Assembly: GCF_964213995.1 (NCBI RefSeq)
Contig: NC_135811.1
Span: 30,628,001-30,692,000 of the forward strand
Direction of reading: 5' to 3'
Source: Mustelus asterias
Taxonomy: Eukaryota
DNA length: 64,000 nucleotides
The position numbers and the translations under genes are program-made. Below are positions 7,848-61,500 of the stretch, piece after piece; position 1 is the stretch's first letter, and every line of letters begins with the position of its first letter. Below the pieces are notes generated by a model, which was not told the DNA's origin, searched no databases, and saw only the letters and a list, made by a program, of their open reading frames with translations.

Positions 7848-7967
7848 CTAGGAAGACTCAGTGACAAGTAACTATAGCATATGCGTAAGCCTCCTGAATT
7901 GTCATGCTAGTGATCACTATTTGCAAAACTTAACTTTTATATTTAGTGTGACTGAACATGATCTTAC

Positions 7968-8100
7968 CAGTTTGTAGAGATGGTGGCTCTTTCTCCCCAC
8001 CAACAGACCCAGATATCATGTTCACATGCTGGGTTTGTTGAGTGAGATACTCCTGAAAGTCCTTGACAAAGTCTACGGAAGCAGCTCTCTTCTCATCCAT
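7968..8100 (-). CDS. IKZF5: IKZF5 paralogue B, first coding exon (CDS part; exon probably 7968-8134)
   Basis: MDEKRAASVDFVKDFQEYLTQQTQHVNMISGSVGGEKEPPSLQT, the Pegasus N-terminal motif. Donor G|GTAAG at 7967; AAG acceptor at 8137-8135. Confidence 0.95.
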
Positions 8101-9471
8101 ATTCTTATAATGTTTAAATCAATCGCTTTACTTCCTTGAAATAAAATGAAAAATATTAGATTATGAAGAACAACACTGAGATTTTTTTTTTTAATTGACA
8201 AAGTTGCCACAGTAGGCATCAAAATGTGATATCCATCCATATTTCGAATTGGGCAGTTAAATGTAATCCCATCAGGCAGAACAACATAGTAGCTGAAAAG
8301 TGAGGATTTTTAAATGCTCTGTAGTAAAACTTAATACTGCATAATATATTACAGCATAATTTAGGGCACTGAATCATAAAATGATTCTGCCAAATGGTTC
8401 TGCAATGCCAACTCCTAGTTCCTCAGTGGAGCACATTTATTACAGCATACAACCTGATCCAAGATAGCAGACCTGACAGCAGCCATTTAGCATTGCAATT
8501 GGCAGAAGCTATTTTTTTGAATGAAGCACCAAAGAGGAACAGCTGTCCCAGAGGTTATAGTGTGTTAGAGAGCACTAAGGCTGGATCCTTTATGTTGGAG
8601 AATTACCTCCAACAAAAAAAACAGCAACAATCCAATGGCAACTTACTAAAACTTATATTCCCTTCATATTGCCAGGTCACAAAAATATTAGAGGCAAACC
8701 ATAACATAAAGGTGGAGATATGTTTATCATGCTAATGTTATCATTGGAATTGTAAAGTAAACATGCATGCAAATATCACTTGTATGTAAAAATAATTGGC
8801 AGTTAAGATCCCTTGTGCTGTACCATTGATGTTGCCCAACAGGTATGAAATATTACACCTCATTATGAAAGCTACACGAACTCTGCAATTTTGTTATTCA
8901 ATGTTGCCTGTGGACACTATAAACAATGTCAAATGAAATGTGTTGTACACCATTATGCACTGTAGTTAACAGATTAGCAATATTTGCAGATGCCCTGTAA
9001 CATTCTTGATGGTTACTCCATTTTTGAAAAGGGGACGGTTGGGATGATATGTCATGTAGGATACTTGATTTGTTTTTCCAACAATCAACAATGGTCATCA
9101 GTAGATTATTAATTCCAGATATTTTTCATTGAATTCATAGTCAAATTTCTCCAGCTGCTGTGGCAGGATTCGAACCCAGGTCCCCAGAACATAAATTCAG
9201 TTTCTGGATTAATAGTCTAGCGATAATACCACTAGGCTATCACCTCCCCCAGCAGAAATACTGATTTGAGGTAACTTATTCAGTCGTCTTCATTGTTTGG
9301 TGTTTATAATTTTTATCATTGCTCTGGGGACCTGTTTACAATTCTGTGAAAACCATAAATAAATGGCTTAACTTCTTCCTCGATATACATTTTATTTTAA
9401 TCCACTACCCATTTTTAAAGCTGTGGATACAAAGCAGGACCAGTTGATTAGAGGTAGGTACCTGGTATTTT

Positions 9472-12726: not shown

Positions 12727-15700
12727 ACAAAGAATACAGCACAGGAACAGGCCCTTCGGCCCTCCAACCCCGCGCCGCTCCCTGGTCCAAACTAGACCAT
12801 TCTTTTGTATCCCTCTATTCCCACTCCGTTCATGTGGCTATCTAGATAAGTCTTAAACGTTCCCAGTGTGTCCGCCTCCACCACCTTGCCTGGCAGCGCA
12901 TTCCAGGCCCCCACCACCCTCTGTGTAAAATACGTCCTTCTGATATCCATGTTAAACCTCCCCCCTTCACCTTGAACCTATGGCCCCTCATGAACGTCAC
13001 CACCAACCTGGGAAAAAGCTTCCCACTGTTCACCCTAATCTATGCCTCTCATAATTTTATACACCTCTATTAGGTCACCCCTCATCCTCCGTCTTTCCAG
13101 TGAGAACAACCCCAGTTTACACAATCTCTCCTCATAACTAAGCCCCTCCATACCGGGCAACATCCTGGTAAACCTCCTCTGCACTCTCTCTAAAGCCTCC
13201 ACGTCCTTCTGGTAGTGTGGCGACCAGAACTGGACGCAGTATTCCAAATGCGGCCGAACCAACATTCTATACAACTGCAACATTGGACCCCAACTTTTAT
13301 ACTCTATGCCCCGTCCTATAAAGGCAAGCATGCCATATGCCTTATTCACTACCTTCTCCACCTGTGACGTCACCTTCAAGGATCTGTGGACTTGCACACC
13401 CAGGTCCCTCTGCGTATCTACACCCTTTATGGTTCTGCCATTTATCGTATAGCTCCCCCCTACGTTAGTTCTACCAAAATGCATCACTTCGCATTTATCT
13501 GGATTGAACTCCATCTGCCATTTCTTTGCCCAAATTTCCAGCCTATCTATATCCTTCTGTAGCCTCTGACAATGTTCCTCACTATCTGCAAGTCCAGCCA
13601 TTTTCGTGTCATCCACAAACTTACTGATCACCCCAGTTACACCTTCTTCCAGATCGTTTATAAAAATCACAAACAGCAGAAGTCCCAATACAGAGCCCTG
13701 CGGAACACCACGAGTCACAGGCATCCAGCCGGAAAAAGACCCTTCCACTACCACCCTCTGTCTTCTTGACCAAGCCAGTTTTTCACCCATCTAGCTACCT
13801 CCCCCTTTATCCCATGAGATCCAACCTTTTGCACCAACCTACCATGAGGGACTTTGTCAAACGCTTTACTAAAGTCCATATAGACGACATCCACGGCCCT
13901 TCCCTTGTCAACCATTCTAGTCACTTCTTCAAAAAACTCCACCAGGTTAGTGAGGCATGACCACCCTCTCACAAAACCATGCTGACTATCGTTAATGAGT
14001 TTATTCCTTTCTAAATGCGCATACATCCTATCTCTAAAAATCCTCTCCAACAACTTCCCTACCACGGACGTCAAGCTCACCGGCCTATAATTTCCCGGGT
14101 TATCCTTCCTACCCTTCTTAAATAACGGGACCACATTAGCTATCCTCCAATCCTCTGGGACCTCACCTGTGTCCAGTGACGAAACAAAGATTTGCGTCCA
14201 GTGACGAAACAAAGATTTGCGTCAGAGGCCCAGCAATTTCATCTCTTGTCTCCCTGAGCAGCCTTGGATAGATTCCAACAGGCCCTGGGGATTTGTCAGT
14301 CTTTATATTCCCTAAAAAACCTAACACTTCCTCCCTTGTAATGGAGATTTTCTCTAACGGGTCAACACTCCCCTCCAAGACACTCCCAGTCAACACATCC
14401 CTCTCCTTTGTGAATACCGACGCAAAGTATTCATTTAGGATCTCCCCTACTTCTTTGGGCTCTAAGCATAATTCCCAACTTTTGTCCCTGAGAGGTCCGA
14501 TTTTTTCCCTGACAACCCTTTTGTTCCTAACGTATGAATAAAATGCCTTGGGATTCTCCTTAATCCTGTCTGCCAAGGACATTTCGTGACCCCTTTTTGC
14601 CCTTCTAATTCCTCGTTTGAGTTCTTTCCTACTTTCTTTGTATTCCTCCAGAGCTCCCTCCGTTTTTAGCTGCCTGGACCTAACGTACGCCTCTCTTTTC
14701 TTTTTGACCAATCCCTCAATTTTCCTGGTTATCCACGGTTCTTGAATCCTACCCTTCCTATCCTTCTTTTTTACAGGCACATGCCTGTCCTGTAGCCCTA
14801 ACAACTGTTCCTTAAAAGACTCCCACATGCCAGATGTGGATTTACCCTCAAACAGCCTCTCCCAATCAACAGCTGCCAATTTCTGCCTAATCCCACTAAA
14901 GTTAGCCTTCCCCCAATCCAACACCTTAACCTTGGGACACCACTCATCCTTTTCCATCACTATCCTAAAGCTAACAGAATTGTGGTCACTATTTGCCACA
15001 TGTTCTCCTACCAAAACTTTGAAGACCTGACCGGGCTCATTCCCCCAGTACTAGGTCCAGTATAGCCCCCTCTCTAGTCGGGCTATCTACATATTGTTCC
15101 AAAGAACCTTCCTGTACACATTTGACAAATTCCTCCCCATTCAGACTCCCAGCCCTACGCGATTTCCAGTCTATACCAGGGAAATTGAAGTCTCCCACTA
15201 CAACAACCCTATTTTTCCTGCACCTATCCATTATCTCCTGACATATCCGTTCTTCCACTTCCCTTGGGCTGTTGGGGGGCCTGTAGTATACCCCCAACAT
15301 AGTGACTGCGCCCTTCCTGTTTCTGAGCTCCACCCACAGTGACTTGTTACACGACCCCTCTGAATTGTCCTCCCTCTGCACCGCTGTAATATGCTCTCTA
15401 ACTAATACTGCTACTCCCCCACCTCTTTTGGCCTCTCCTCTGTCTCGCCTAAAACACTTGTACCCCGGAATATTCAGCTGCCAGTCCTGTCCCTCTTTCA
15501 ACCAAGTCTCTGTCACCGCAACGACATCCAAATCCCTCGTAAGCATTATGACCCTAAGTTCGTCTGTCTTACCTGCTACGCTCCTTGCATTGAAGTAGAT
15601 GCGCTCCAGACCTCCAGGCCCGTGAGGTCATCCTCCCCCAGAGTGCTCTTCTTCTTTGCCAGCCTTGTCCTGGCCCCAAGCTCATCCCCAGCCTCTACAC

Positions 15701-27698: not shown

Positions 27699-28100
27699 GG
27701 CAGCACAGCGGTTAGCACTGCCGCCTCAACAGTGGTCAGGGTTTGATTCCGGGCTTGGGTCACTGTGAGGGAGTCTGCACGTTCTCACCCTGTCTGTGTG
27801 GGTTTCCTCCGGGTGCTCCGGTTTCCTCCTAGTCTGAAAGATGTGCTGGTTAGGTGCATTTACCATGCTAAATTCTCCCTCAGTATGCTTACTCAACAGG
27901 TCATGATATGGAGTGACGTTGGACTGGGGTAAACACAGTAAGAAGTCTAACAACACCAGGTTAAGGTTAAACCTGTTGGACTTTAACCTGGTGTTGTTAG
28001 ACTTCTTACTGTACTCCACTGGTGCCAGAGTGTGGCCACTCGGGGATTTTTACAGTAACTTCGTTGCAATGTTAATGTAAGTTTACTAATAAATATACTT
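27699..28100 (+). mobile_element. V-SINE interrupted by a short Penelope-like inverted repeat (27902-28011)
   Basis: SINE head and V-domain; the insert CAGTAAGAAGTCTAACAACACCAGGTTAA...TTAACCTGGTGTTGTTAGACTTCTTACTG matches the element at 41073. Confidence 0.82.
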
Positions 28101-36146: not shown

Positions 36147-37072
36147 TTAAGTTTGCTTATGCTGACCTCTGGCAAAATGACAAGCAAAATCATATTGGTT
36201 TTTACATTTACATCCACATATGTTACACTGAAATGGATTCTCATAACCATGGCACCCCATGTGAATAGTATAAAGGATATTGTCTGCAAAGTACATGTCA
36301 CAGTGTTGGCAGTGATGCAGAAGCTGGGGATCCTGGACTTGAATTGGAGGAGCAGGAGTGCTAGGTTGGCTGTTCGTCATGCAGGGTGAGCTCATGTGAG
36401 CACTGCGCTCACTATTAGGGCCTGGAACAGGACTGAAGGTTCTTTGATTATGCACAGGATGTCTATCAGGACTAGCATTGGATGAGCTTTGAGCCACACT
36501 AGAAACTACAGTAGTAACTATTGGTGCCATAGATTGTGGTATAAGATATGGTTTCTCATCTCTGCATGTCATATCAGAAGATGCTGGAGCTTGGTCATCT
36601 TGCGAAAGGCTGGAAAGCTGGCCAGCTAAGGCAGAAAGCTGGTTTAATGGATTATCCACCATCATGTCCTGTACATCCCTTGAGATTCCACTAGTCTGTG
36701 CTTTTGTCAGACCCTCATAAGATTCAGCTGAGATGTTATGAGAAAACTCATCAAGGTAATCTGTCTTCTGTGCCACCATGGGAGGACTGAAATTACTCAG
36801 AGGTCGTCTTCCATAACTCAGGGAGTAGCTGGATTTTTTCTGCAAAATTCCCATCATTCTCTTATTGGTCAGTGATGTCCTGCGTCCTTTTAGAGGAAGT
36901 AGTTTATGCCTGCGCCTGCGATGGTGGGATAAATTACTTTGATCACTGCAGCGAAAGGAACAAAGCTCACATTTATATGGTTTTTCACCTCTATGTGAGC
37001 GCATATGTGCTTCAAGGTGACGCTCATAAGCTGAAGCAAATGGACATAGGTGGCATCTGTGGGGTTTCTCAC
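36147..37072 (-). CDS. IKZF5: IKZF5/Pegasus paralogue A, last coding exon (ZF2, ZF3, C-terminal ZF4-5)
   Basis: CAG acceptor 37075-37073; open frame to TAA at 36149-36147; ends HHCQHCDMYFADNILYTIHMGCHGYENPFQCNICGCKCKNQYDFACHFARGQHKQT. Confidence 0.97.
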
Positions 37073-39319
37073 CTGCATGAGAAAGAACAAATCAGCAAAG
37101 TTATTCCACTTTTCCTCTTAAAACTTTATATCTTAAGCAAAATCTGAAAGATTTCTCTCCTTCAGGTTGGAAAAAATACCACTCAGCTTCCCAAATGCTT
37201 CTGTAAGTATTTGACATGAGCCAAACAGAGGAAAGCTTCAAGATTAGACCCCCTGCCTGTGCTGAGTTAGCTGATCTCAGTTCGAGCTGTATAACAAAAA
37301 TGCCCGTTTGCATTTCTAGGGAATGAGGGACCAGTGTTACTCATTCAGTGATTCATACTGGGAAATGCAAGTATATGGATATATGAGGCGAGGGGCAGCC
37401 AACTAGTCAATATGACCTGACGCGTCTCAGAAAGAGGTGAACATTTGAATGAGACAAAATTCCATGGGCATCCATGAAACTGTAGACCAGCAGAATCACC
37501 GTATTCAGGAAAAGGGAAAATGCAAACAAGTGAACATGACAGATAATATACTTAGTTTGAATATACGCCAACAGCTCCTGTTTTACCAAGGCTATTTTTT
37601 AATCTGTAGCCCAACCATTTAAAAATGATTGTCCCGTGACCAGAGTGTGTAAAAAGGAATATTGTTCTGGCTGTCACATTATAGAACTCCATTGGGAAAA
37701 GAAACTGTGCAAAGAATTAATGAAAAATTCAATCATGTCCAATAATAGTAACACAATAAATGTAAAATTATGGATCAAGGAAGTTGTTTGCGTCTTCCTG
37801 AACTTATACCACTGATTTTCCTATAAAGGAAACTGAGAAAAAAAAAGGATCTTCAGATGCAATCATTCTCTAAGCTTGCACATCAGAAAGACACACAATT
37901 TAATAACAAGCATTTTTAAAAATGACTACATGTTGGCCTGGAGTTTGCAGAAACAATGGTTAGGCTAACGTATATGGCCTAAATCAGAAAGCAACTTGCA
38001 GCAATCACATGTGCACATTTAAATGAAAAAAAAACAGACATTGCCGTCAGGAATACTCCGTCCCTCCACTGTTGCATTGCAACAGTTCTCGCAAATACTC
38101 AATATCACTGATGGTATCAAGTTGTGACAGTACCCAATAAAAAGCCCCAAAAAAGGTAAGGCTCAGTGCATTCAAGATCAGATTAAGCTTTAATGAAATA
38201 AGTGATGATCACTGCCAAACAACCTTCCTGGCCCCCAAAAATGTGACGTCTTATTCCTTCGAAGTTTGAGATTTTTAAATATATGCATTTTTCACATATT
38301 GTTTCTCATCTCTTTTAATCCCTTCTTTCCCAATCATAATTCCACTTTCTGTATGTGATTTTATATAGTGAATTAAGTGTATTCATACTTTCACTTCAGG
38401 CTTCCTGGTTTATACTCTATATCTCAGTGAGAATTCTTTAGTCTAATTTGAAGAGCCTTGCTGTTTTTTGTCCTGTTTAGACATCTAGATCTCCTGGAGA
38501 GTGCACCACACTAGAAATGATTTAATTGCATAACTTGCTTCAAAAGCTCATCAAAAATTTGTGGGCAACTGTCAATGTAATGCACAGCAAGCACCATTCC
38601 TGTCATTGACCGAAAGTCTAGATCAATATATCAGGAATAAATACCTCCTCCTAAGGTTTGCTTTATGGAATTAGTATGTATTCTTTTGTCAACATCAGTT
38701 AATATCTATCTTTGGAAAAACCCTGCACTCATCATCCTTCAATCTCCAGTGACCCCAAAATTTAATTGTTCTGGAGAAGATGAGCCTTGTAGCTTGCATT
38801 TCCAGACTGCAATATATATTCCAACTACATTTGGCTTGCAAAGCCAAAGTGAAGTGTTATGAAGCATAGACTCATGAAAATGTTCACCTGGAACACATTT
38901 GTACAAAAGCAACTGTACCATACCCCTCTGCATGTAAAGAATTAGTAATAATATCAAGTGCTGCAAATAAGCATAATGGCCACGATTTTTCAGGCCGTTC
39001 ACCGCGGGCACACAATCTGAGATCCCGGGCCCTCCCTACTGACATAACCAGGTTCACACTCAGTGAGGACGTGTACCAAACAACCAAGAATTTAAATTTA
39101 AGTATTCATAAATGGCCAACGCCATTGCTTTCGGGGTCATCAGATGTTCCGTCCTGCCAGCATGACGTAATGCTGGAGGCGAGTATAGCACCTGGGTGAT
39201 GAGTGACATGACCAGATGGGCACTGCCGTGGGTGGGGTCAGGGTCTCTAGGGATCACATTGGAGGGGGTGGATTCATATTATGTGGGATGCAGGCAATGG
39301 TGAGGGGAGGGGAAAAGTG

Positions 39320-40540
39320 GTCAAATAGTTCCAAGTCTGGAAGATGTGTAGCTTGGAGGGCAATGCTGCCCTTGTCCTTTGAGGTGGTAGAGGTTGCGGT
39401 TTTAGAAGGTGCTGTTCAAGCAGCCTTGGTGAGCTGCTGCAATGCATCCTGTAGAAGGTGGTTAAAGGGGTGGCAATGAAGCAGGCTGCTTTGTCCTAAA
39501 AAGTGTTGAACTTGTTCAGTGTTGTCACAGTCACACTCATACAAGCATGTGGAGAATCTTCCATTGAACTCCTGATTGTTCATATTTTAAAGGCACAGTC
39601 TTTGGGGAGTCAGGAGAGGAGTTACTTATCACAGAATTCCCAGCCTCTGACTTGGTCTTGTAGCCACATTATTTGTGTGTTTTTTTCAGTTCAGTTGCTG
39701 GTTAAAGATAACCCCCAGGATAGAGCGGCAAGGTGGCACAATGGGTAGCACTGCTGTCTCTGGGCGCCAGGGACCTGGGTTCAATTCCAGCCTTGGGCCA
39801 ATGTCTATGCGGAGTCTGCATGTTCTCCCCATGGCTGTGTGGGTTTCCTCTGGGTGCTCTGGTTTCCTCCCCCAGTCTGAAAGCCATGCTGGTTAGGTGT
39901 ATTGGCCATGCTAAATTCTCCCTCATTGTGGTGCCGGAGTGTGGTGACTTGGGGATTTTCACAGTAACTTCATTGCAGTGTTAATGTAAGCCTACTTGTG
40001 GCACTAATAAATAAACTTTAGGATGTAGATAGTGGCTAATTCAGTGATTGGAATGCATTTGAATGTCAATGGGAGATAGTTAGGATTCTCCCTTGGAGAT
40101 AGTCATTGCTTCGCACTTGTGTGACATGAATGTTACTTTACGTATCCAGCCCAAGCCTGGATACGTCATCCAGCTCCTGTTGCATGCCAGAGTGGACTGT
40201 TTCAGTATCTATGGAGTCACGAAAAGTACTGAATACGGTGCAATCATCAGCAAACAACCCCATTTCTGATCTTATGATGGAGGGAAGATCATTGATGGAG
40301 CAGCGGAAGACGGATTTACACTGGGACACTACCCTGAGGAACTCCTGGTGCGACATGCTGGATTTGAGATGATCTTCCTCCTACATCCATTTTCCTTTGT
40401 GCTATGTATGGCTCTAAACCAGTGATGAGTTTTCCCAATTTTCATTGACTTCAGTTTTACGAGGCCTCCTTGATTCTACAGGTGGTCAAATGCTGCCTTG
40501 ATGTAAAGGGCAGTCATCCCAACCTCATGTACTTAGAGTT
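39320..40540 (-). mobile_element. Decayed LINE RT fragment with nested V-SINE (39725-40018, +)
   Basis: INDLPSIIRSEMGLFADDCTVF (ORF 40138-40356). Confidence 0.75.
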
Positions 40541-41072
40541 TCAGAGACTAGAAGAAGTGATATGTAAATCGCAAAATTCAGTATCAAAATTGACCAAAAA
40601 CAGAAAATTTGGTGCCTGAAACATTTTAACAACAGGAATATAAAAGTGTTTTAATGGCAGAGTGCAATGTGTCATGTTGTATGGGTATGGATATATGTTA
40701 TATATGCACAAAGGTATGATGTAGGTATACATGAAATATTCACTGTTTTTAAACTAATGACTGTATGATATTTTATACTGGAAGTAAAGCCAAAGACAAA
40801 TTTTCACTGTTGCGTGGACAATAAAGCTTCCTTCTATTCTATTAGCCGGTAAGGAATACTAAAATTAATGATGTGAAGGAATTGATAGAGGTTTTTAAAA
40901 TCCTTTTATGAATAGCATAGGGGTCTAATTAGCTCAATTGGCTAGCAAGTAGTTCATAATAACACCAACGGCATGAGTTCAATTTCTGTTCTGGTTGAGA
41001 TAGACTTGGGATCAGTCCCCTCACCCTGCTCCTGAGGCTGGAAGGCAATGGCAAACCACTGACAAAAAAAAG

Positions 41073-41580
41073 GTAAGAAGTCTCATAACACCAGGTTAAA
41101 GTCCAACAGATTTATTTGGTAGCAAAAGCCACTAGCTTTCGGAGCGCTGCCCCTTCGTCAGGTAAGTGGGAGTTCTGTCCACAAACAGGGCATATAAAGA
41201 CACAAACTCAATTTACAAAATAATGGTTGGAATGCGAGTCTTTACAGGTAATCAAGTCTTAAAGATACAGACAATGTGAGTGGAGAGAGCGTTAAGCACA
41301 GGTTAAAGAGATGTGTATTGTCTCCAGACAGGACAGTTAATGAGATTTACCTTTAAGACTTGATTACCTGTAAAGACTCGCATTCCAACCATTATTTTGT
41401 AAATTGAGTTTGTGTCTTTATATGCCCCGTTTGTGAACAGAACTCCCACTTACCTGGCGAAGGAGCAGCGCTCCGAAAGCTAGTGGCTTTTGCTACTAAA
41501 TAAACCTGTTGGACTTTAACCTGGTGTTGAGAGACTTCTTACTGTGTTTACCCCAGTCCAACGCCGGCATCTCCACATCA
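41073..41580. mobile_element. Penelope-like element end with 192-bp inverted arms (41073-41264 / 41351-41542)
   Basis: Near-perfect inverted repeat plus tail TGTGTTTACCCCAGTCCAACGCCGGCATCTCCACATCA, shared with the copies at 27902 and 50248. Confidence 0.8.
41129..41165 (-). ncRNA. Minimal hammerhead ribozyme motif (Penelope-type)
   Basis: Minus strand UUAC-CUGACGA-A-GGGGC(AGC)GCUCC-GAAA-GCUA-GUGG: core, stem II, palindromic AGCU, stem I. Confidence 0.6.
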
Positions 41581-41778
41581 AAAAAAAATGCCAGGGGAAG
41601 TTGCTCAGGATGAAGATGATGAACAAACGTCCTACTTTTGTGCAAAGCACAAATGAATGAAGCATCCAATCAAAAGCATGTGAGTAGTCACACTATTTTA
41701 CCTAACCAGTTCTGAGTTCAACATAGTAACTCAATAGTTGGTGCTTAATTGTGTAAGCTATCCTGTCAAATCTATTAC

Positions 41779-41961
41779 CTGTGTGCATTCTTGTGTGCTC
41801 CATCAATCGTGCTATCCCTTTGCTAGCATAGTTACAGTACTGACACTTCAGTTTTCCATCAACCGTTCTTTCTGGTCCTTCTCCTATCATTCCAGCGCCA
41901 TCATCAAGAGAAACCTCAACAGAAGCATGGTGGATTCCATTTTGGTGATTTTCAGTCCCAG
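41779..41961 (-). CDS. IKZF5: IKZF5 paralogue A, ZF1 exon (183 bp, phase 1-1)
   Basis: CAG acceptor 41964-41962; AGTENHQNGIHHASVEVSLDD...KLKCQYCNYASKGIARLMEHTRMHT; donor G|GTAAT at 41778. Confidence 0.95.
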
Positions 41962-44622
41962 CTGCCAATAAAAGTAAAAGTATTGACTAAGACAACTTCA
42001 CAAATTTTAAAAAGTAGTTCAAAATATGATTACAAACAAGATAATACTAATAGACCGTAGCTTAAACAGGCATTCTTGTATAGTAGAGACATAAAAGTAC
42101 AAGACCGATAAACCAAGGTTACTACAGAGGTTTTTACAAAAATAAATGTTTGGAATTACAGAATGTAATTCTAGCCCATACTCAAATCCAAGTCCTGCAA
42201 GTCCCATCACATCCAGTTGTGAATGGTGTTGGACCATTGAACAACTAATGGCTGGGAGACTTGATGCCATCATTGAGGAAAGGGAAGGTGGAAATAGGCA
42301 ATCTTCGTGGTGGAACGGACATTATTGGAAACACACCTCAGGGTCAAATATAACACCAAGATTGTAAACAATCTAATTCAGCTTTAAACATTTGACAGAA
42401 AGATGGATTCAGTGGCAGGGAACAAAGTTTATGGAGCGATGATTTTGATCTTCCCAATACTCAGCTGGAGGAAATTTCTGCTCATGCAGTACTTTCAAGT
42501 TTTGAAAACTAATGAGACAAATTGACTAACATCACCCTAGAGGTTACCATTGACCAGAAACTGAATAGGACCAGCCATATAAAGACTGTGGTGACAAGAG
42601 CAGGTCAGAGGCTGAGAATTCTGAGGCAAGGAACTCTTCAGTTATTCCTGACTCCTTAAAGCCTGTCAGCATTCGACAAGGCGCAAGATAGGAGTGTGAT
42701 GAAATACTCTCTCCACTTGTTGGATTAGCGCATCTCCAACAATACCTAGGAAAAAGTAGCCCACTTTATTGGCACCCCATCCACCACTCATACCATTCAA
42801 TTCCTTCACCACCGACACGAAGTGCCAGCAGCATGTACTATCCATAAGATGCACTGCAGCAACTCACCACAGCTCCTTCCAAATCCGTGATCCCTACCAC
42901 AGGGAAGGACAGGGGCAGCAGCTGCATGGGAACACCACCACCTGCAATTTCCCCTCCAACTTGCACACCATCCTGATTTGGAGCTCTGTTACCATTCCTT
43001 CAATGTCACTGGATCAAAATCCTGAAATGCTCTTCTTAACAGCATTGTAGGTGTACACTGCAGTTCAAGGCGGCGGCTCACCACCAGCTTCTCAAGGGCA
43101 GTTAGGGATGGCCAATAAACGCTGGTCTAGACATGACGGCCACATCTCGTGAACTAATAAATAAATAAAATTGGACGTAGTGGACCAGTCAAGAGAGGTA
43201 CTGGTGAGAAAGAACTGTGTGTCAACAACTTACATGTGGAACTGAGGGGCGGCATGTATTTGAGAAATAGGAAAGGGTGTGGGGGCGTGCAGGGCAAGTG
43301 GCAGCCCTTTGGGATCCCTCGAGTTAACAGTGCAGGAGCAGGAAGTGAACAGATAATTTTCTGAATATGACTGGCTAGTTAAACTAAGAAACCAGGTGAG
43401 TATAGTCCTAACAAATTAGATAAGAGAAGAGACATTACAGGGGGGATAGTATGATCAACCATGTCAGAGGCTGAGAAGTAGGAAGAGGGATAATTTACTA
43501 TGATCACAGTCACATAGGTTGAAAGTTTTGACTTTGACGGCTAGGGCAGAAACGTGATTCTAGCGTGAAGTTCCAGGGCAGAATTTGGGAGGCAACAGCA
43601 CTTTTAAGGATCTGAAAGAAAATAAGGTTGGAGAAGAGGAGCTACTTTCATTAAACATTCAAGAAGTAAAAGTATGTAATGTTATCTTCCTCAGTTTCCT
43701 TCTACTACAATGTGTTTAGTGTTTTTGATTTGTTTTAATTATACAATACCCAATACCTCAGCGGGTATAGGCACCAAATGATTTTGGATCAGATAGGTCT
43801 CAGGTTCACTCAATCAATGGTCTGTTCTGGTAGTGGAACGCAATGACTGGATCAGGTTGACTATTTCTGGTCGCTATTCAGTAATCCCCAAGTCTGCACA
43901 TGGATATTACACAAGGATAACTTTGAATTTGGCTGCAGTTAAACAGCAAAGCTCATGTTCAACATAAAAAAATAGTCATTAAGTGCTGAAAGGGTGATAG
44001 AACTCACAGAACTAACTATAAGACATTAATTCCAGGAGCAAGAGAAAGTTGAAAAGATAAATGTACAAATTCAATACATTTTCATATTATACAACACCTG
44101 TTAAAATGTACTTCACAGAAATACAAGGTCAACTGCATTTCAAAACCTCGATTTCTTCACAGAAAGTAGGCTTTTGCATGCAGATATATTGACCACGCAC
44201 AAACCACTTGATTGTTAATTTACGAGACATTTAAATTGATAAAAAGCTAATCCTTCCAAATAGGAAGGAACTCAAGAACAAACTAAGATGGGATCAATAA
44301 TACATTGACACAGTAAAATACAGCCAATCGGGCATGATAAAATCACGCAAGTTAAAAATACTGACTTCTTTTGTCATAAAACTCTATTATATGAAGCCTT
44401 TTCTTTTAAAACTGAGTTTTTCAAAGATTAATTCCAAGAATTATTAAATTTATGAAAAATTTGCATCTTAATGTCTTCTACACACTGCACCTCAGCTAAA
44501 TGAGAAAGTGTAAATACACAGGTGTTTTTAAGTCCTTGTTCACTATACCATCATGCATAAAAATTCTTGGGTGTTTGTTACAAGTCCAAAGTAACCAAAT
44601 CAAAAGTTTCCTTAGTTTAGGG

Positions 44623-45092
44623 CAGTGGTTCCCAACATCTTTTATATATTATGGCACACCACTATACTATAAAAATATTTTGAGGCATATCTATTTTTCC
44701 TGTTTTCTTCCTGTACTGGGAACTTTGTTTTTAAACTTCTCCCTGTCCGCTCACCTGTTTTTTTTTAACCTTTCCCTGTCTCTCACTTCTCCCAGGGATT
44801 TTGCAGTCTTTGAGTTTTCGCTTTTTGTGCAGGTGCATGGGACTTCTGTCTTCAGCTTATGCGTAGTTTAAAAAATCTAAACCACGCATGTACAGCTCTT
44901 TCCCAGTTGGCGCATGTGCAGGAGCCCCAAGATTCGTCCAGTCTTGGAGATGCCAACCACTGAGCTGAAGATGAAGGTTAGTTTTAGTTTAATCACATGA
45001 ATTTTGAAACATTTTGAATCTATTCTCATGGCACACTTGGGGAGTCTTTATGGGACACCAGTGTGCTGTGGTCCACTGGTTGGGAACCGATG
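44623..45092. mobile_element. hAT/Charlie-like MITE
   Basis: TIR CAGTGGTTCCCAAC / GTTGGGAACCGATG; perfect 8-bp TSD GTTTAGGG. Confidence 0.88.
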
Positions 45093-45343
45093 GTTTAGGG
45101 AAACATTTGAACCCTTAAATTTTGCGTCACTGTTGGTATATACTTAAGAATCATATTCTCTCCGTGAAAGTTTTTGTAATCTTCAAGCAGAGACTTGATA
45201 TACTTCAACCCAATATTTTATATAAACATTATCTTGACTATAGATGGTAGAGGTGGTACAATTCTTTTAACAATTAAATTCACATCCAAGCTTAAGTTTG
45301 CGCAAGCACATGTTTAACTACAATTAGCATTTTCTTTCCTTAC

Positions 45344-45476
45344 CAGGCTGAAGTAATTCTGGTTCCTTTTCATTACATACTGAGCCGGAAATCATATTTA
45401 CATGCTGTGTTTGCTGAGTGAGATACTCTTGAAAATCCTTGACAAAGTCTACAGAATCATTTCTCTTTTCTCGCAT
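45344..45476 (-). CDS. IKZF5: IKZF5 paralogue A, first coding exon (CDS part; exon probably 45344-45508)
   Basis: MREKRNDSVDFVKDFQEYLTQQTQHVNMISGSVCNEKEPELLQP; donor G|GTAAG. The three exons sum to 133+183+926=1242 nt, i.e. 413 aa plus stop. Confidence 0.96.
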
Positions 45477-45627
45477 ATTCTTACTCTTGATTGAAGCTTC
45501 TTTAATTCCTTAAGAAAAAAGGTTTCAATATCAAATATTTCATATCCACCATGTTATTGGACAATATTATTCAGTATGCACTTGCATTATTCAGATCTGA
45601 AAATACTTTCAAGAATGCTGTTTTATG

Positions 45628-45893
45628 CAGCACAGTGGTTAGCACTGTTGCCTCACAGCGCCAGAGACCCGTGTTAGATTCCTGGCTTGGGTCACTGTAT
45701 GTGTGGAGTTTGCACTTTCTCCCGTGTCTGTGTGGGTTTTCTCCGGGTGCTCCGGTTTCCTCTGACATTCTGAAAGACGTGCTGGTTAGGTGCATTGACC
45801 CGAACAGGCGCCAGACTGTGGCGACTAGGGGAATTTCACAGTAACTTCATTGCAGTGTTAATGTAAGGCTTACTTTGACTAATAAATAAACTT
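45628..45893 (+). mobile_element. V-SINE with alternative tail
   Basis: Same family as 22270. Confidence 0.85.
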
Positions 45894-46094
45894 TTATTTT
45901 AAATCAGAAGTCAAGAGTAAATTTCTCCATTCATTCGATCCATTTTCTAGTTCCACATATAGCATATTTCTTTCCCCCTCCCCAGGATTGGGTCAAATTC
46001 TGAAAATATACAATATTGAGCTCCAAATTATAGCTCATATTGTATTTGCAGTTATGTTACATTATTGATTTACATTAAACAAAGAATGATGGAA

Positions 46095-47310
46095 ATACAA
46101 ACATAGGAGCAGGTCATTCAGCCCTTCAAGACTGCTCCATCATTCAATCACTGCTCAGCCAGCCGCTCAATACACCCCCCCAACCCCACCCCATCACTGG
46201 TATCTAGAAATCTGTTAATCTCTAATTTTAACATACTCAGTGACTGAGCTTTCACAGCTGTTTGGGTGAGAGAATTCAAAAGATTCACAACCCTCGAGTA
46301 AAAAAAATGTCTCCTTATACAGTCCCAAGTGGCTTCCCCCTGATTTTGACTCCCCAACCAGGGGAAACATTTTGCCTGCATTTACGCTGAGGAAAGTCTA
46401 ACCCTTTTAATCATTTTGTAGGTTTAATGAGATCACCTCTCATTCGTTGCAACTCTAGGGGACACAGGCCCAGTTTCCCCACTCTCTCTTCATAGGACAG
46501 TCCCACCATCCCAGGAACAAGACTGGTGAACCTTTCTTGCATTCCCTTTATGGCAATAATATCCTTCCTAAGGCAAGGATACCAAAACTACATACACTAT
46601 TCCAGATGTTGTTTAACCAAGGTTCTACACTACTGAAGCAGGATTTCACTACTCCGGTGCTCAAATCATTGTGCAATGAAGGCTAGCATTCCATTAGCTT
46701 TCCTAATTGCTTGCTACACTTGCATGTTAACTTTCAATGATTTATTGATGAGGATACCCTTTGTACACCTATACTTTCTAATCTCTCAGCATTTAAGAAG
46801 TACCCTGCACATCTGTTCCTCCTACAAAAGTGGATAACCTCACATTTTTCCACATTATATTCCAACTGCCATGTTCTTGCTCACTCACCGAGTCTGCTCA
46901 AATCTCCTTGAAGCCCCTTTAAATCTTCCTCACAATTCACATTCCCACCTAACTTTGTGGCATTTGCAAACTTGGAGATTGTACATTTGGACCCCACATC
47001 CAAATCACTGATCTGCTAGGGCCCCTCGTACTCATCCTTGCAGCACCCCACTAGTCACAGCCTTCTTAACGGGAATGATCTGTTTATTCCTACTCTCTTT
47101 TCCACCTATTAATCAATTCTTAATCCATGCTGATATATTACCTCCTATCTCATGTGCTTTAACTTTACGAACCAACCTCTTGCGGAGTCTTTATCAAAAG
47201 CTTTCTGAAAATTCAAGATTGTTACGTTCACCGACTCCCCTTTATCAATTCTGTTAGTAACATCCTCTAAAAAACTCCCAACAGGTTCAATATGATTTCC
47301 CATTCATGGA
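46095..47310 (-). mobile_element. Decayed CR1 LINE 3' part, followed by a partial SINE (47310-47515)
   Basis: RVVNLLNSL motif and RT remnants. Confidence 0.75.
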
Positions 47311-50247
47311 TTTCCTCCGGGTGCTCCGGTTTCCTCCCACAATCCAAAGATGTGCAGGTTAGCTAGATTGGCCATGTTAAATTGCTCCTTAGTGTCAGGG
47401 ATATCAGCAGGGTAAATACATGTGGTTATAGGGATAGAGCCGGGGTGGAATTATTGTCAGTGCAGGCTCAATGGGTTCCTTCTGCACTGTAGGGATTCTA
47501 TTCCATGATTCTATTATTAGCAATGCAATGCATTTAAGTGTAAGGAAAGGCAGGAGTGAACTCTATCAATGCTTTAAGACATTCTGGTGCAATCTCATCA
47601 AGGGAACACTGGTGCTGTACAAATACTCAATAATTGTGGCTTAGGACATGTTCTGGTCTATATCGCCACACAGAGCAAACCTGCTGGAATGGTACCAAAC
47701 TGAAGTGAAATGTTTGCAGAGAGAAAAAAAACGGGAATTGAAGTTTGTAAGAAAATTATTTTGGGAGCAAAAAAGTTAGTTGTGCTAAAACAGTTCACCA
47801 TAAAAATGTAGAATGTTAGGTTGACAGAAGAAAAGCACTGTCTCAAGTATAACAAACTTTTGCCATTATATTTCACAATGATTAATATTCATAGGGGTCA
47901 ATGGAAACTTCAAACTGACGGGAAGGTTGAGTGACATTTAGAACTGACAGTAACCTCAAATAATATCAACCAACAGGAAGTGGGAAACCAATATTGGTCA
48001 CGGAGGAAATATATAAAGAAAAATTTAAGGTAAGAACTCTACATGCTTGCAAACCAGACAGAAACCATGAAGTGTGTCACTGTTATAATGTATACACTGA
48101 TTAGCATTCATTGTTGCTACTGCAGGCAAGAACAGTCGGGTGATAACTGCTTCAGCTATTCCATGTTCCCAGCTCACCTCAGATCTTCATATCGGAAAAT
48201 CAAGGCTTATTTTGTGAGTATGAAAACGAAATGCATCTTGTGCAGTTGTGGAGAATGATTTTTTATGACAATCAATGATTCAAAGTTTATATAAAATGTC
48301 TCAATACTCTAATTCAATTAAAGCCTTTGTCAAAACTAATTTAACTGACGTCGAACTGCTTTAATACAATTATTATTGTAACTTCTTGAATTTTCATCTT
48401 CAAATCTAATTCAAACTATTTTAATTCCTAAAATACTGTTTGCAGTGCATTCATATGAAAACAAACTAAAGAGCTCTAATTATTCCTTGTCAGACTCGTC
48501 AGTGACAGCATTGACTCTGCTGCACTTCATAAATCGTAACATACCAGACCTGTAATCATATACATGAGCAAACCTTTTAGATCTAGCAATGATCACAAAA
48601 ATATCTGCTTCAAGTTATTAGAGAGCCAGATCTATGATTTCATTTTTAAAGTTAAAATCTCCCCATACACGACATGTACTTCTACAAAAATAAAAGTAAA
48701 TCTCCATAAATTTAAACCCTTTTTCTCAATAAGCATCTCCATCCTCTATAGTCATCTCTGAAACACCCCCAGGTTTCTTCTTTAGTACCCTCGTTGACCA
48801 CATCTACATATATGGTCAGTTTCTACATTTAAGTTGACCACTGTGCAGGCCATCACTAGCTTCGACTCCATACCCATCTCTGTTGCCAAATTATTTGTCC
48901 AATGTTTTAAAGAGCCAGAATTCTCCCAAGTGGAACACTGAGAATAACAAAATTGGTAAACAGCTCATGCTTGAAGCTCCATTGCTTTGCTATCCATCCC
49001 AACTTGTTACCTGATAAAGCATAAGACTGTCTTGTTATTACTCTGGACTCATCTTCAAATTCCATATGTATTCAACACCATAATAATGTTTCCAAATCAT
49101 CCACATTTGCCTTTATCCGAATCCTAAAGTTGCTGAAATTCTGATGTTTTCATTCCCTCAATTTTAACTTTTCCAAAGTCCTCCTCTTCAGCCATTGCAA
49201 GCTCCATCTTTCCTGCCGATTGCTTGCTCCATCTCCCAGTGAAAATAGTTTGTCTATAAGTCCTAGCCTTACTCCTTTAGCCTCTTCAGCTTTAAGTCCA
49301 AGCCTGCAGCCTTTCACTCTTTTGAATGAATAAAAACTCCAGTGTATCTTCCCTCCATGTTGGTGGCAGTCTTCCTCAGTACTGTCCTATTGTTTGGAAT
49401 TTCCTCTTTAAGCTAATCTATTTGCTACTTCTACCCATCTTTAGGAGCATCCACACAACAGCCTATGACAGGGATTGGAACATTTACTATTTTACAGTTA
49501 CATTTAACAGTATTACATCACTGAATCCCACACCAACAATATCCTAGGGATCATCACTGACCAGAAACTTAACTGCACTAGTCACATAGATACTATGATG
49601 GCAAGAGCACATCAGTCTTTGGAAATTCTGCAACAAGTATCTCACCTCTTGACTTCCCAAAGCTTTTCCACCACTGACAAGGCACAATTCAGAAATGTGA
49701 TCGAACGCTTGCCTGGGTGAGTTCAGCTCAAAAGGACAAAGCAACCTCCTTGATAGGCATCACCTCAATCATTCATTCTCTTCATCATGGTTGCAATGTG
49801 TACCACCTACAAAGATGCACTGCAGCAACTCACCAATACAGCATCTACCAAACTTCTCTCAGAGGGTAGTGAATCTCTGGAATTCTCTTCCCATTGAAGC
49901 AGTGGAGGCTACCTCGTTAAATATGTTTAAGTCGCAGGTAGATAGATTTCTGATCAATAAGGGAATTAAGGGTTATGGGGAGCGGGCAAATAAGTGGAAC
50001 TAAACCACTATCAGATCAGCCATGATCTTATTGAATGGTGGGGCAGGCTCGAGGGGCTAGATGGCCTACTCCTGCTCCTATTTCTTATGTTCTTATGTAA
50101 ACCCGCAACCTCTACCAAACAGAAAAGACAGCAGCCAGACGCAAACACCATCACCTGCAGGTTCCTTTCCAGGACACACCATCCTGATTTGGATCGCAAT
50201 AGTCATGGAACTCACTTCCAAACAGTAATATGGGTGTACCTATGCCA

Positions 50248-50524
50248 GTAAGAGTTTTAACAACACCAGGTTAAAGTCCAACAGGTTTATTTGGTAGCAA
50301 ATGCCATTAGCTTTCGGAGCGCTGCTCCTTCGTCAGATGGAGTGGATATTTGCTCTCAAACAGGGCATACAGAGACACAAAATCAAGTTACAGAATACTG
50401 ATTAGAATGCGAATCTCTACAACCAACCTGGTCTTAAAGATACAGACAATGTTGGACTTTAACCTGGTGTTGTTAAAACTCTTACTGTGTTTACCCCAGT
50501 CCAATGCCGGCATCTCCACATCAT
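50248..50524. mobile_element. Penelope-like element end with short inverted arms
   Basis: Same family as 41073; flanked by an imperfect duplication TGTACCTATGCCA / TGTACCTACACCA. Confidence 0.78.
50304..50340 (-). ncRNA. Minimal hammerhead ribozyme motif (Penelope-type)
   Basis: Minus strand CCAU-CUGACGA-A-GGAGC(AGC)GCUCC-GAAA-GCUA-AUGG, with perfect stem I and stem II. Confidence 0.65.
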
Positions 50525-50822
50525 GTACCTACACCACACAGACTGTAACACTTCAAGAAGACAGTTCAACACCAACCTCTCAAGGACATATAGGAATGGG
50601 AAATAAATGCTGGTAATACAATTTTGTTAATGAATAAAAAATGCAAGCCACTGTAGTCAGTAGAACTATTGTGTACTTACATTTTTTATACATTAGCCCT
50701 TTTGTTTTCTTTTGCATCATTGGGATAGTTTTTAAACACAAGAGCTTTCACAGGCCCCACCAAAAGGCACTTCTTTGTCCCCTTCACAGACCTCTATGTG
50801 GAATGGCTGTATGCACACAGGC

Positions 50823-50895
50823 AGTCACATATGCTTTGTGACTTTTGAAGTCACATATGCTTTGTGACTTTTGAAGTCACATTGCTTTGTGACTT
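50823..50895. repeat. 26-bp palindromic tandem repeat, ~2.8 copies
   Basis: AGTCACATATGCTTTGTGACTTTTGA repeated; each unit contains AGTCACA...TGTGACT. Confidence 0.9.
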
Positions 50896-51179
50896 AAAAA
50901 AAATAACGGAGATGTTTATTTACGTTAGGCGGCTCTTATAGATTTTGGCGGCGGGGAGGTGGAATGTTAAGTTTTGTACGGGACACGTGTGTTAACCAGA
51001 GTAACTGCTTGCCTTCTCATTGGGGGAAAAACATAGTGGCTTGCACCAGTCCACTCCTCTGAAATCAAAATGAAACACCATCCTCGACATAAAATAAAAA
51101 ACGTCTTTTTTTTTGTTTACGCGTTTAAAATTGGATGAGCTAAAATACCAGAATTAATTACGTAAAGGAAGAATGATCC

Positions 51180-52300
51180 TCCCGCCTGCCCAGCCAGCCA
51201 GCCCTCCTGTAAGGCCGGGGGCTCCAGTTTACAAATGGCTGTTGTGGTGACTCCAACAACCTGGCTCCGACAAAGAGCCCGCCCCCTTCCCCCGCGCCCA
51301 TTGGTTCAAATCAGCGGAACGTCAGAGCCGCGCAGCCTGCGATTGGTCAGTCGGACTGTCACTCACAGAGCGGGCGGCTCAGAGTTAACATTGAGAAACG
51401 GGCCGCGTTATTTTAAATATCGACAGACACAACATTCCCCCCCCCCTCCAAAAATTACACACTAAACAGGTACAAGATAAATGGCTTGGGGGGGGGGTGG
51501 TTAAAATCGTCAGTCTCTTCTCCACCCCTCCCCCAATGTTTCTCACAAGTTGTGTTGTCGGCCGACGACAGAGGCGGCTCGAGCGCTTTCGGTTATTTTT
51601 CAAATGGCCCATCCGGGAGTTGGATTGTTGGGGGGAGGGGAATCAGGCCCGGGGAGAGCAGAGTCTCCCCCCTCCATCCATACCTTCAGCTTAATTCCAT
51701 TCACTCGACAGCGGCTTCCAAACAGCACAACATAGCGGGGCTCCCGCTGAGGGAGAAAGACGGGCTTGTAGACAGGAGGCGAGATGGGCGAAGGAGGAGA
51801 GGGCCACCCCCACTTTGCTTTTTTTTTGGATGGGTGTCCGAGGGAGGAAGCTTTTCGCTTTTTAAAAGATTTTCTCCGGCCGATTTCCCTTTAACCACAA
51901 ATCCCCTCCGAAGACGAAGGGAACAAAAGGCCGGCGTCGATGTCACAGTTGAGATGGGACACACATCCGCGGGTATCCAGCTGGAAGTGACATCAGCGGG
52001 CGGGGCTGCACCATGCCTATCACCGGAGCTTAGGCCTGTTAGCGGGGCAAAGCCAGGAGGCAGTCCTACAGTAGGCTGCTGCTGTTGTTGCTCCTCCTCC
52101 ACTGCAACCTTGTGGGACTAATTTCCCCCGTACTCGTAAAATACACGGTATTTTCTTTTAAGCAAAATGGAAATAGCGTCAGTTTTTTGTTTTTCCGGGT
52201 CAAAATCAATATAGTGGTGATGTTACGTGTGAAATCTCGCCACTCCCTTTAAACAGCAGTTGCATACTAATTTGTCCAAGATACTCTAGCGTCTGTTACA
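51180..52300. promoter_or_regulatory. CpG island, probable bidirectional promoter (IKZF5-A minus, neighbour plus), including candidate non-coding exon ending at 51684
   Basis: CpG-rich. GC box (~51278), two CCAAT boxes (ATTGG at 51300 and 51342), ETS/CRE-like GGAAGTGACATCA at 51983, minus-strand donor AAG|GTATGG at 51683. Confidence 0.75.
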
Positions 52301-52309
52301 AAGGACGAA

Positions 52310-52336
52310 ATGGCGATTTGGTCATTGCTTTCCAGG
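52310..52336 (+). CDS. Candidate first coding exon of the divergent neighbour gene (probably ACADSB): MAIWSLLSR
   Basis: Strong Kozak context GAAATGG and consensus donor AGG|GTGAGT (phase 0) at the edge of the CpG island. ACADSB is head-to-head with IKZF5 in mammals. Identity is inferred from synteny; no later exon was recognised. Confidence 0.5.
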
Positions 52337-58509: not shown

Positions 58510-61500
58510 TGTTTTTAGGAAGTAGAGTTGGCTAAGTAAATGGTATTTGGCATAAACTATAGTTTTATGTTAGGGTATTAATTTTAAGTTCAAGCTAAAT
58601 TTATATTTCTCAATTTGTATGTGACTTGAGTTATTTCACTTTAAAATATGCCTGCATTTTAATTAGATTTTATGACTCTAGAGCATGTAGGGCCAAAACA
58701 AAAACTGATCTGGGCTGTTGCTTAGTCACAAGAAGCCACAAGGGAACAGAAAGCAACTTGAGGTTCAGTTGTTCTATGGTGAAGGGAGCAGTTTAAGCCT
58801 CAGGATATGAAAGGAGACTGCAGAGAACAGGCATTAAATTAAAAAACTGAAAGACCCCAAAACCAGGGAGAGGGACAGAAGGAAGTCCCAAGAAAACCTT
58901 CTAGTCGTAGAAAAAGAACAAGAAACTGGAAAAGATCCAGTTAAGTGCAGTGAAGAGCAGAAGTTCCAAGTTAAAAGACAAGATGCCGACCTGATATAAC
59001 GTGGGCTTGTGAGAAGCCAGAGATCCAAAGGGACCCAAAAGTTGGTGACTCTACCACTGCCTGTAAAGCAGTGGTATTTTTTTGGCATGGTTGGGTATCT
59101 GTGAGTTTGCGTAGAAGCCAAAACTTTAATGCACATTATGCTCCAGGGCAGAGGAACAAACAAAGAGAGATTCAAACACTGGAGGTCGGTTCTTGACATT
59201 CGGGAGAAGATTCCATCTTCCAGAGTTGAGATCGGCAACCCATGTGTGGGAGACAGCATTCCAGTGAGATCAGTTGACTCACAAGCATCTAGGGAATTGA
59301 TAAGAAATCCAAAGAAGTTGTTTTGGATGGCATTTGTCTCTTGGTTTCAGAGTGTGGTGTGTCTGACCACAGTTATAGAGTCAAAGGTTTACAACATGGA
59401 AACAGGCCCTTTGGCCCAACTTGTCCATGCCACCTTTTTTTTTTGAAACCCCTAAATTAATCCCAATTGCCCGCATCCCTCTATACTCATCGGATCCATG
59501 TAACTATCTAAATGCTTTTTAAAAGATAAAATTGTACCCGCCTCTACTACTACCTCTGGCAGCTAGTTCCAGACACTCACCACCCTCTGTGAAAAAATTG
59601 CCCTCTAAACACTTTTGTATCTCTCCCCTCTCACCTTAAACCTATGCCCTCTAGTTTTAGACTTCCTTACCTTTGGGAAAAGATATTGACTATCTACCTT
59701 GTCTATGCCCCTCATTATTTTATAGACCTCTATAAGGTCACCCCTCAGCCTCCTACGCTCCAAGGAAAAAAGTCCCAGTCTATTCAACCTCTCCTTATAA
59801 CTCAATCCATCAAGTCCCGGTAGCATCCTAGTAAATCTTTTCTGCACTCTTTCTAGTTTAATAATATCCTTTCTATTATAGGGTGACCAGAATTGCACAC
59901 AGTATTCCAAGTGTGGCCTTAACAATGTCTTGTACAACTTCAACAAGACGTCCCAACTCCTGTATTCAATGTTCTGACCGATGAAACCAAGAATGCCGAA
60001 TGCCGCCTTCACCACTTTGTCCACCTGTGACTTCACTTTCAAGGAGCTATGAACATGTACCCCTAGATCTTTTTGTTCTGTAACTCTCCCCAGCGCCCTA
60101 CCATTAACTGAGTAAGTCCTGCTCTGGTTCAATCTACCAAAATGCATCACCTCGCATTTGTTTAAATTAAACTCCATCTGCCATTCATCAGCCCTCTGGC
60201 CCAATTGATCAAGATCCCGCTGCAATTGGAGATAACCTTCCTCACTGTCCACCATGCCACCAATCTTGGTGTCATCTGCAAACTTACTAACCATGCCCCC
60301 TATATTCTCATCCAAATCATTAATATAAATGACAAATAACAGTGGGCCCAGCACTGATCCCTGAGGCACACCGCTGGTCACAGGCCTCCAGTTTGAAAAA
60401 ACTACTCTCTACAACCACCCCAATTTTGTATCCATTTACATACCTCACCCTGGATCCCATGAGATTTAACTTTATGCAACAACCTACCATGCGGTACCTT
60501 GTCAAAGGCCTTGCTAAAGTCCATGTTGACAGCATCAACTACACTGCCCTCATCTACCTTCTTGGTTACCCCTTCAAAAAACTCAATCAAATTTGTGAGA
60601 CATGATTTTCCACTCACAAAGCCATGCTGACTGTCCCTAATCAGTCCTTGCATCTCTAAATGCCTGCAGATCCTGTCTCTCAAAATACCTTCCAACAATT
60701 TACCCATCACAGATGTGAGGCTCACTGGCCTGTAGTTCCCAGGCTTTTCCCTGCAGCCCTTTTTAAACAAAGGCACAGCATTTGCCACTCTCCAATCTTC
60801 AGGCACCTCACCCGTGACTATCGATGATTCAAATATCTCGGCTAGGGGACCCGCAATTTCCTCCCTAGCCTCCCACAATGTCCTGGGATATACTTCATCA
60901 GGTCCCGGGGATTTATCTACCTTGATGCGCTTTAAGACTTCCAGCACCACCTCCTCTGTAATATGTACACTCCTCAAGACATCAATATTTATTTCCCCAA
61001 GTTCCCTAACATCCATGCTTTTCTCAACAGTAAATACTGATGAGAGATATTCATTTAGGACCTCACCCATCTCTTGTTGCTCAGCACATAGATGACCTTG
61101 TTGATCCTTAAGAGGCCCTACTCTCTCCCTTGTTACTCTTTTGCCCTTTATGTATTTGTAGAAGCTCTTTGGATTTTCCTTTGCCTTATCTGCCAAAACA
61201 ATTTCGTGTCCCTTTTTGCCCTCCTGATTTCTCTCTTAACTCTACTCCTACACCCCCTATACTCCAAGAGATTCACCTGGTCCCAGCTGCCTATGCACGT
61301 CATGTGCCTCTTTCTTCTTCTTGATTAGGGCCTCAATATCCCGAGTCATCCAGGGTTCTTGACTTCTGCCAGCCTTGCCCTTCACTCTAAGAGGAATGTG
61401 TTTACCCTGAACCCTGGTTAACACACTTTTGAAAGCATGCCACTTATCAGACGTCCTTTTTCCTTCCCACAGACTCCCCCAATTAACTTTTGAAAGTTCC

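Follow-up and report, generated by a model that had tools for sequence, protein, structure and literature searches.

What are two hammerhead ribozyme motifs doing in the introns of a single gene? The question is raised by a 64,000-nt stretch of the shark Mustelus asterias (NC_135811.1, positions 30,628,001 to 30,692,000; hereafter the window), where the IKZF5-A gene carries one such motif in each of two introns. The original prediction was that both lie in Penelope-like inserts, that their stem I covaries, and that the two might cleave the IKZF5-A pre-mRNA as a dimer. Our analysis points instead, with a probability of about 90%, to both motifs being minimal type I hammerheads left by two truncated insertions of an abundant Penelope-like element (PLE) and likely inert as passengers of IKZF5.

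Direct checking of the sequence confirmed the positions and the letters of both motifs. On the minus strand, the motif read from 50340 to 50304 (the intron 1 motif) has CCAU and AUGG as the strands of stem I, CUGACGA followed by one extra A, a stem II of GGAGC and GCUCC joined by AGC, and then GAAA and GCUA; its predicted cut falls after CUA, between 50308 and 50307. The motif read from 41165 to 41129 (the intron 3 motif) has the same layout with UUAC and GUGG in stem I and GGGGC as the first strand of stem II, and would be cut between 41133 and 41132. Both contain the AGCU palindrome of stem III. The plus-strand arm copy at 41450-41486 does have a broken core, CUGGCGA being an A6G change. Within the window, a loose CTGANGA..GAAA pattern gave 12 matches, both motifs included, where 6.2 were expected, and an Rfam scan returned no hammerhead family among its 9 matches at E<=5. 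Across the 3.68-Gb genome, an exact search for the 29-nt core yields 17,065 sites, against 0 for a reversed control pattern, so a core of this type is not a chance match.

The family behind these copies is large. Its exact cores are spread evenly over both strands; a pattern admitting all subfamilies finds 105,989 intact cores (1 per 35 kb), and a 26-nt motif from the tail is present without mismatch at 181,225 sites. Among 153 copies examined, 16 lacked a parsable core, leaving 137 that, having been picked by exact core, ORF (open reading frame) or tail, lean to young copies. The core CUGANGA ... GAAA ... UH is intact in 113 of the 137, and GAAAGCU, with its palindromic stem III, is present in 122. 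The 10.1-11.1 pair is G-C in 131 and G-U in 6. Position N7 varies among C, A and U, and position H17 is G in a single copy; the other 136 have A or U there, apart from two with C. The unpaired base between A9 and stem II is A in 132 copies. This extra A had been noticed earlier and likened to that of a viroid hammerhead; the base is indeed there, but in PMC4209133 it is a conserved PLE feature and not a rare viroid-like one. One large subfamily has a 6-bp stem II and differing loops. The largest young subfamily (L041:2195-2263 and similar) reads CUGAAGA, with a 6-bp stem II and an AAGCUU palindrome; the 3' strand of its stem I is 2 nt longer, making two pairing registers possible.

The parent of these copies is a coding element. 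Sequence upstream of other copies of its pseudo-long terminal repeat (pLTR) encodes a GIY-YIG domain, and a genome search based on that domain yielded 150 scored matches of 91,302 candidates, from which 16 long-ORF loci were fetched. At one of them (L061), an 891-aa ORF contains RVT_1 (E 6e-10) and GIY-YIG (E 6e-5) domains above the Pfam cut-offs; NCBIfam gave reverse transcriptase (RT) matches only below threshold. A related hammerhead core lies in each of the two pLTRs around the L061 ORF (at 2332 and 5353), one ~100 nt ahead of the start codon and the other ~215 nt beyond the stop codon. Upstream of GIY-YIG, the ORF has the linker CHSNLCKTC, a CX4CxxC form of the CX2-5CxxC linker that defines Neptune/Nematis elements (PMC8557442). 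The element is accordingly best described as a putative Neptune-type endonuclease-bearing PLE, a clade call made from the linker motif alone. The two inserts of the window resemble pLTRs situated after the end of a GIY-YIG ORF, with identities of up to 96% for one and 93% for the other; that these inserts are Penelope-like and carry minimal type I hammerheads, as first proposed, is thus borne out.

Each insert consists of an inverted pLTR piece and a truncated direct piece bearing the longer tail, an arrangement described for these elements (PMC3846280). Insert 1, which holds the intron 3 motif, forms an inverted repeat with 202-nt arms (41066-41267 and 41348-41549; 12 mismatches, 94% identity) whose duplex is computed at -348 kcal/mol, and the A8 runs flanking it are a probable target-site duplication. 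In insert 2, the 3' part of a minus-strand pLTR (50452-50247) abuts a 76-nt plus-strand tail piece that ends at the ORF start; just ~40 nt of it is inverted, which leaves the intron 1 hammerhead free. The two copies of its own probable duplication share 8 identical bases, and the two differences between them would fit opposite decay of one CpG. As the flanks and the subfamilies of the inserts differ, they represent two separate insertions. An array of retrozymes was considered and ruled out: there are no tandem units, both inserts are head-to-head, and each has one sense motif. Elsewhere in the window, one more stub of this element, reduced to its tail and folded back on itself, occupies positions 27900-28012. 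This stub matches Rfam mir-3015 (E 6e-5) with a score of 42 bits, short of the gathering score of 59, and the letters shared in both arms hint that mir-3015 may derive from a PLE tail.

Could the two intronic motifs nevertheless find each other? A long-range dimer cutting the IKZF5-A pre-mRNA would lower output or free a 9.2-kb piece with exons 2-3, and its ingredients are present in that both cores are intact, sense and endowed with the same AGCU palindrome. Dimers of PLE hammerheads have also been reported to cleave, though at a low level, while monomers gave no detectable cleavage (PMC4209133; PMC6765202). The original prediction, however, overlooked that the intron 3 motif lies in one arm of the 202-nt inverted repeat. 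Folded with the whole insert, every one of its hammerhead pairs has a predicted probability of 0.0 (minimum free energy -377 kcal/mol); without the other arm, stem I still stays at 0.0 and stem II reaches ~0.5. Even in isolation its stem I, which has two U-G wobbles, shows pair probabilities of 0.18-0.62. In a transcript of minus-strand sense the antisense arm of insert 1 comes first, so that the motif would be captured while emerging. The two sites are, moreover, 9,175 nt and two exons (2 and 3) apart, and the linking AGCU duplex is worth about -2.5 kcal/mol.

The co-occurrence itself asks for no special explanation. The first 100 exact cores of the listing already include 4 same-strand pairs within 15.5 kb, and over the whole genome exact cores alone should give some 396 pairs no more than 10 kb apart. 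Counting all intact cores, hand arithmetic puts the chance of co-occurrence at ~2% in a gene of 16 kb and ~40% in one of 100 kb. Two cores in IKZF5-A are therefore ordinary and expected by chance. Given the sequestering hairpin, the distance and this chance expectation, we abandon the proposal that the two motifs cleave the IKZF5 pre-mRNA as a dimer, and consider it extremely improbable.

Three points weigh against regarding both copies as inert. The intron 1 motif does fold as a hammerhead in context, with predicted stem I and II pair probabilities of 0.78-0.87 in 311 and 801 nt of surrounding sequence; sequestration of the intron 3 motif is a thermodynamic folding prediction; and RNA-like contigs of related organisms contain pLTR sequence in abundance, so that a rare partner in trans is possible. 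On this basis the intron 1 copy alone might be competent and be cut at a low level with the help of pLTR RNA in trans or of protein. The palindrome is common to the 105,989 intact cores, and in vitro cleavage of the anole PLE hammerhead has been observed with 500 nM RNA in the presence of protein (PMC11167929). Yet comparable minimal monomers are the ones reported as silent in PMC4209133, a palindrome of 4 bp would hold two RNA molecules together only weakly, and the anole site, in the data described in PMC11167929, has no RNA-seq reads beginning or ending there. Low-level cutting in trans is thus unlikely, and inert passengers remain the preferred reading of the two copies. If the inserts affect IKZF5 at all, the 200-bp hairpin (41066-41549), which begins ~230 nt after the exon 3 donor, is a more plausible cause than cleavage, as a likely substrate for adenosine-to-inosine editing or an influence on splicing.

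The covariation seen between the two copies was real and extends well beyond them. In the genome-wide motif search, the closing pair of stem I over the 17,065 exact cores is U-A in 10,156, C-G in 5,351, U-G in 961 and C-A in 262, with other combinations in the remaining 335. The inner three pairs of stem I hold in 132-135 of the 137 parsed copies and the outer five of stem II in 130-137. Over 13 selected rows, 95% of cells are paired and the cell-based pairing measures exceed all 500 shuffles. There, 3 of 16 pairs are changed on both sides, one of them in the distal extension of stem I; this count does not beat the shuffles (273 of 500), and one distal pair fails in 8 of the 13 rows. Helices I and II are supported by covariation, though by few independent events. 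Because the covariation amounts to a few subfamily changes, selection would have acted on the retrotransposon and not on IKZF5. Covariation within the window was rejected as a sign of function at IKZF5, as it reflects one inherited subfamily difference between two copies.

How the family decays is consistent with this. Copies with U7, a tolerated variant, number 5,062, and those with G8A, which breaks the core, 1,326; both arise from one CpG, for which symmetric decay would give about 1:1. Selection on source elements would explain the conserved core and the compensatory changes, while the G8A copies show that copies decay after insertion. The likely sequence of events is as follows. In the active element the motif sits in the pLTR at both ends of the ORF. 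Tandem pLTR copies would join through their AGCU palindromes, which would form a common stem III, and would be cut slowly after the H17 base, as PMC4209133 and PMC6765202 suggest. Selection on such elements would maintain the core and its compensations, and inserted copies then decay. In the IKZF5 pre-mRNA, the intron 3 copy is predicted to zip into the 200-bp hairpin while it is being made and the intron 1 copy to fold, with no partner nearby.

The same conservation might be read as that of a pLTR element which binds protein or serves as a promoter, a hammerhead in looks only. Consistent with that, of 103 copies that have a core, 102 reach beyond the cut site and so derive from uncut RNA, and catalytic mutants of the anole element had no effect on insertion in vitro (PMC11167929). 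However, variation among the subfamilies falls at the positions that hammerheads tolerate (N7, H17 and loop II), while the invariant core positions are all kept, G is nearly absent at H17, and a modest excess of copies starts at the cut site. These patterns make a purely protein-binding or promoter role improbable and favour a hammerhead that was selected in the source element.

That excess raises the possibility that the hammerhead cuts in living germ cells, with a minority of inserted copies starting where the cut is predicted, a point that moves by 2 nt between subfamilies. We hold this only tentatively and think it rather doubtful. Copies broken within 16 nt around the cut site gave 6,622 matches against 3,925 in the next downstream window, a rough control as the anchors differ. 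The first 100 of the matches listed comprised 98 distinct rows, of which 8 with an upstream core were dropped, leaving 90. Among these listed matches, 30 of 90 copies start at position 0 or -1 of the cut site, where a uniform null gives 22% (p=0.009), and 9 of 16 do so in the longer subfamily's own register. With tight fold-back junctions set aside, the figure is 15 of 47 (p=0.076). Fold-back junctions pile up equally at +3 and +4 (9/90 and 15/90), at short palindromes; a strong cleavage footprint was rejected on account of this clustering. The excess of copies beginning at the cut site is modest and partly confounded. Seven loci (L108, L121, L129, L142, L159, L182 and L195) have a recurrent fold-back junction whose arms share a 2-nt palindrome coinciding with the two bases that directly follow the cut site, and a similar junction occurs at +3. 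Were cutting in germ cells true, it would provide the in vivo evidence of PLE hammerhead activity that the cited papers state to be lacking, and host RNA could occasionally be cut by latent half-ribozymes numbering about 100,000, which include the free copy in intron 1 of IKZF5-A.

Placing both intact motifs in sense orientation in introns of one IKZF5-A gene was right, as its exons (Table 1) and contigs from related organisms indicate. The last exon of the upstream paralogue is 83-95% identical to chondrichthyan Pegasus/IKZF5. In 4 of 4 runs from related organisms, RNA-like contigs span the segment ~51970-51683 and end together at a GT donor; three of these contigs have a length of 1.4 kb and run beyond this stretch. 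The runs are guessed to be RNA, and such contigs cannot show RNA ends. From the contig ends and the donor we read this segment as a non-coding exon 1. With the contigs ending at the donor of this putative exon, at 51683, intron 1 then contains the 50304 motif and intron 3 the 41129 motif, both of them sense.

Table 1. Coordinates in the window of the hammerhead motifs, the inserts that carry them and the exons of IKZF5-A.
Feature	Positions	Strand	Remarks
Minimal type I hammerhead, U-A closing-pair subfamily	50304-50340	-	IKZF5-A intron 1, sense
Minimal type I hammerhead, C-G closing-pair subfamily, G-U in stem II	41129-41165	-	IKZF5-A intron 3, sense; predicted sequestered
Mirror copy, A6G core change (CUGGCGA)	41450-41486	+	Antisense in IKZF5 pre-mRNA; strand pairing with the 41129 motif
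Insert 1, head-to-head pLTR fragments	41072-41580		A8 runs on flanks; starts 199 nt past exon 3 donor
Insert 2, head-to-head pLTR pieces	50247-50523		blastn to natural pLTR copies, 79-93% and 91-96%
Probable 12-bp target-site duplication of insert 2, left copy	50235-50246		Right copy 50524-50535
IKZF5-A putative non-coding exon 1, in CpG island	51684-51970	-	5' end approximate; relatives' contigs, GT donor, CpG observed/expected 0.76
IKZF5-A exon 2, start codon at 45476	45344-45508	-	Splice signals
IKZF5-A exon 3, first zinc finger	41779-41961	-	Splice signals
IKZF5-A last coding exon	36147-37072	-	Pegasus matches, splice signals

The window holds two tandem IKZF5/Pegasus paralogues on the minus strand (1-8118 and 36147-51970) with the same exon layout and ~73-86% amino-acid identity over shared exons. 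Two Pegasus entries of elephant shark are among the matches, suggesting that the duplication may be old. On the plus strand, a second RNA-like exon (52107-52336) ends at a GT donor and diverges from IKZF5-A exon 1 across ~140 nt of CpG island, probably a bidirectional promoter; ACADSB is presumably the neighbour of this gene in human. Long reverse-transcriptase fragments of CR1-type long interspersed nuclear elements (LINEs) lie on the minus strand at 13038-15627 and 59608-61235, and many pLTR stubs at the fetched loci sit inside CR1-type LINE copies.

Taken together, the finding is largely ordinary: the motifs are real, correctly placed and of a known kind, and the remaining lead concerns the family, not the IKZF5 locus. 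For locus-specific regulation of IKZF5 they are most likely of no consequence. The family, with its intact cores and several subfamilies, is a very large natural alignment of minimal hammerheads, useful for dimer cleavage tests and for studying selection against sense intronic copies. If the 5'-end excess at the cut site holds genome-wide, it would bear on whether PLE hammerheads cut in vivo.

The closest known relatives are the minimal hammerheads in the pLTRs of metazoan PLEs described by Cervera and De la Pena in 2014 (PMC4209133). They share with the shark motifs the type I fold, a 4-bp helix I, the unpaired base between A9 and G10.1, the G10.1-C11.1 pair, palindromic positions 15.2-16.2, consensus families with covariation, and mostly solo copies, with pairs on opposite strands separated by 100-700 bp. 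Such pairs, the covarying families, the palindromic stem III and the additional base that follows A9 are therefore already published. Stem II is 5-6 bp in the shark and 7-8 bp in Schistosoma, and the 105,989 intact shark cores compare with ~4,000 in coelacanth and ~9,000 in Xenopus, numbers obtained by different search methods. No shark is named in the accessible text of that paper; no account of this family was found in the literature searched, and the supplements of PMC4209133 and of a bioRxiv preprint (10.64898/2026.07.22.740005) may list sharks.

Neptune-type PLEs have, like the shark element, a single ORF with RT followed by GIY-YIG and a CX4CxxC linker, an inverted truncated pLTR copy, a 30-40-bp tail on one end only and an 8-12-bp target-site duplication (PMC8557442, PMC3846280), whereas the copies in the window have lost the ORF. 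With the anole Poseidon element PAc, the family shares inserts that extend past the cut site, which makes uncut RNA the main template, and two tail end points (PMC11167929). The PAc hammerhead, however, overlaps the start codon while the shark motif ends ~100 nt upstream of it, and no reads mapped to the PAc cut site in the data of that paper, while in the shark genome 5' ends are modestly over-represented near the site. Animal non-LTR retrozymes likewise carry PLE-derived type I hammerheads and occur in the one chondrichthyan sampled, and >40% of their Xenopus copies overlap introns (bioRxiv 10.64898/2026.07.22.740005). They form head-to-tail tandem arrays, in contrast to the head-to-head stubs of the window.

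A hammerhead domesticated by its host was also considered and rejected, given 17,065 exact copies and the predicted sequestration of the 41129 copy. The ultraconserved intronic hammerheads of amniotes are single-copy, conserved across species and equipped with a full stem III. RECK and its relatives are examples (PMC6155905). Like them, the shark motifs are type I, intronic and sense to the host gene, but they are two of ~100,000 transposon copies and have no stem III of their own.

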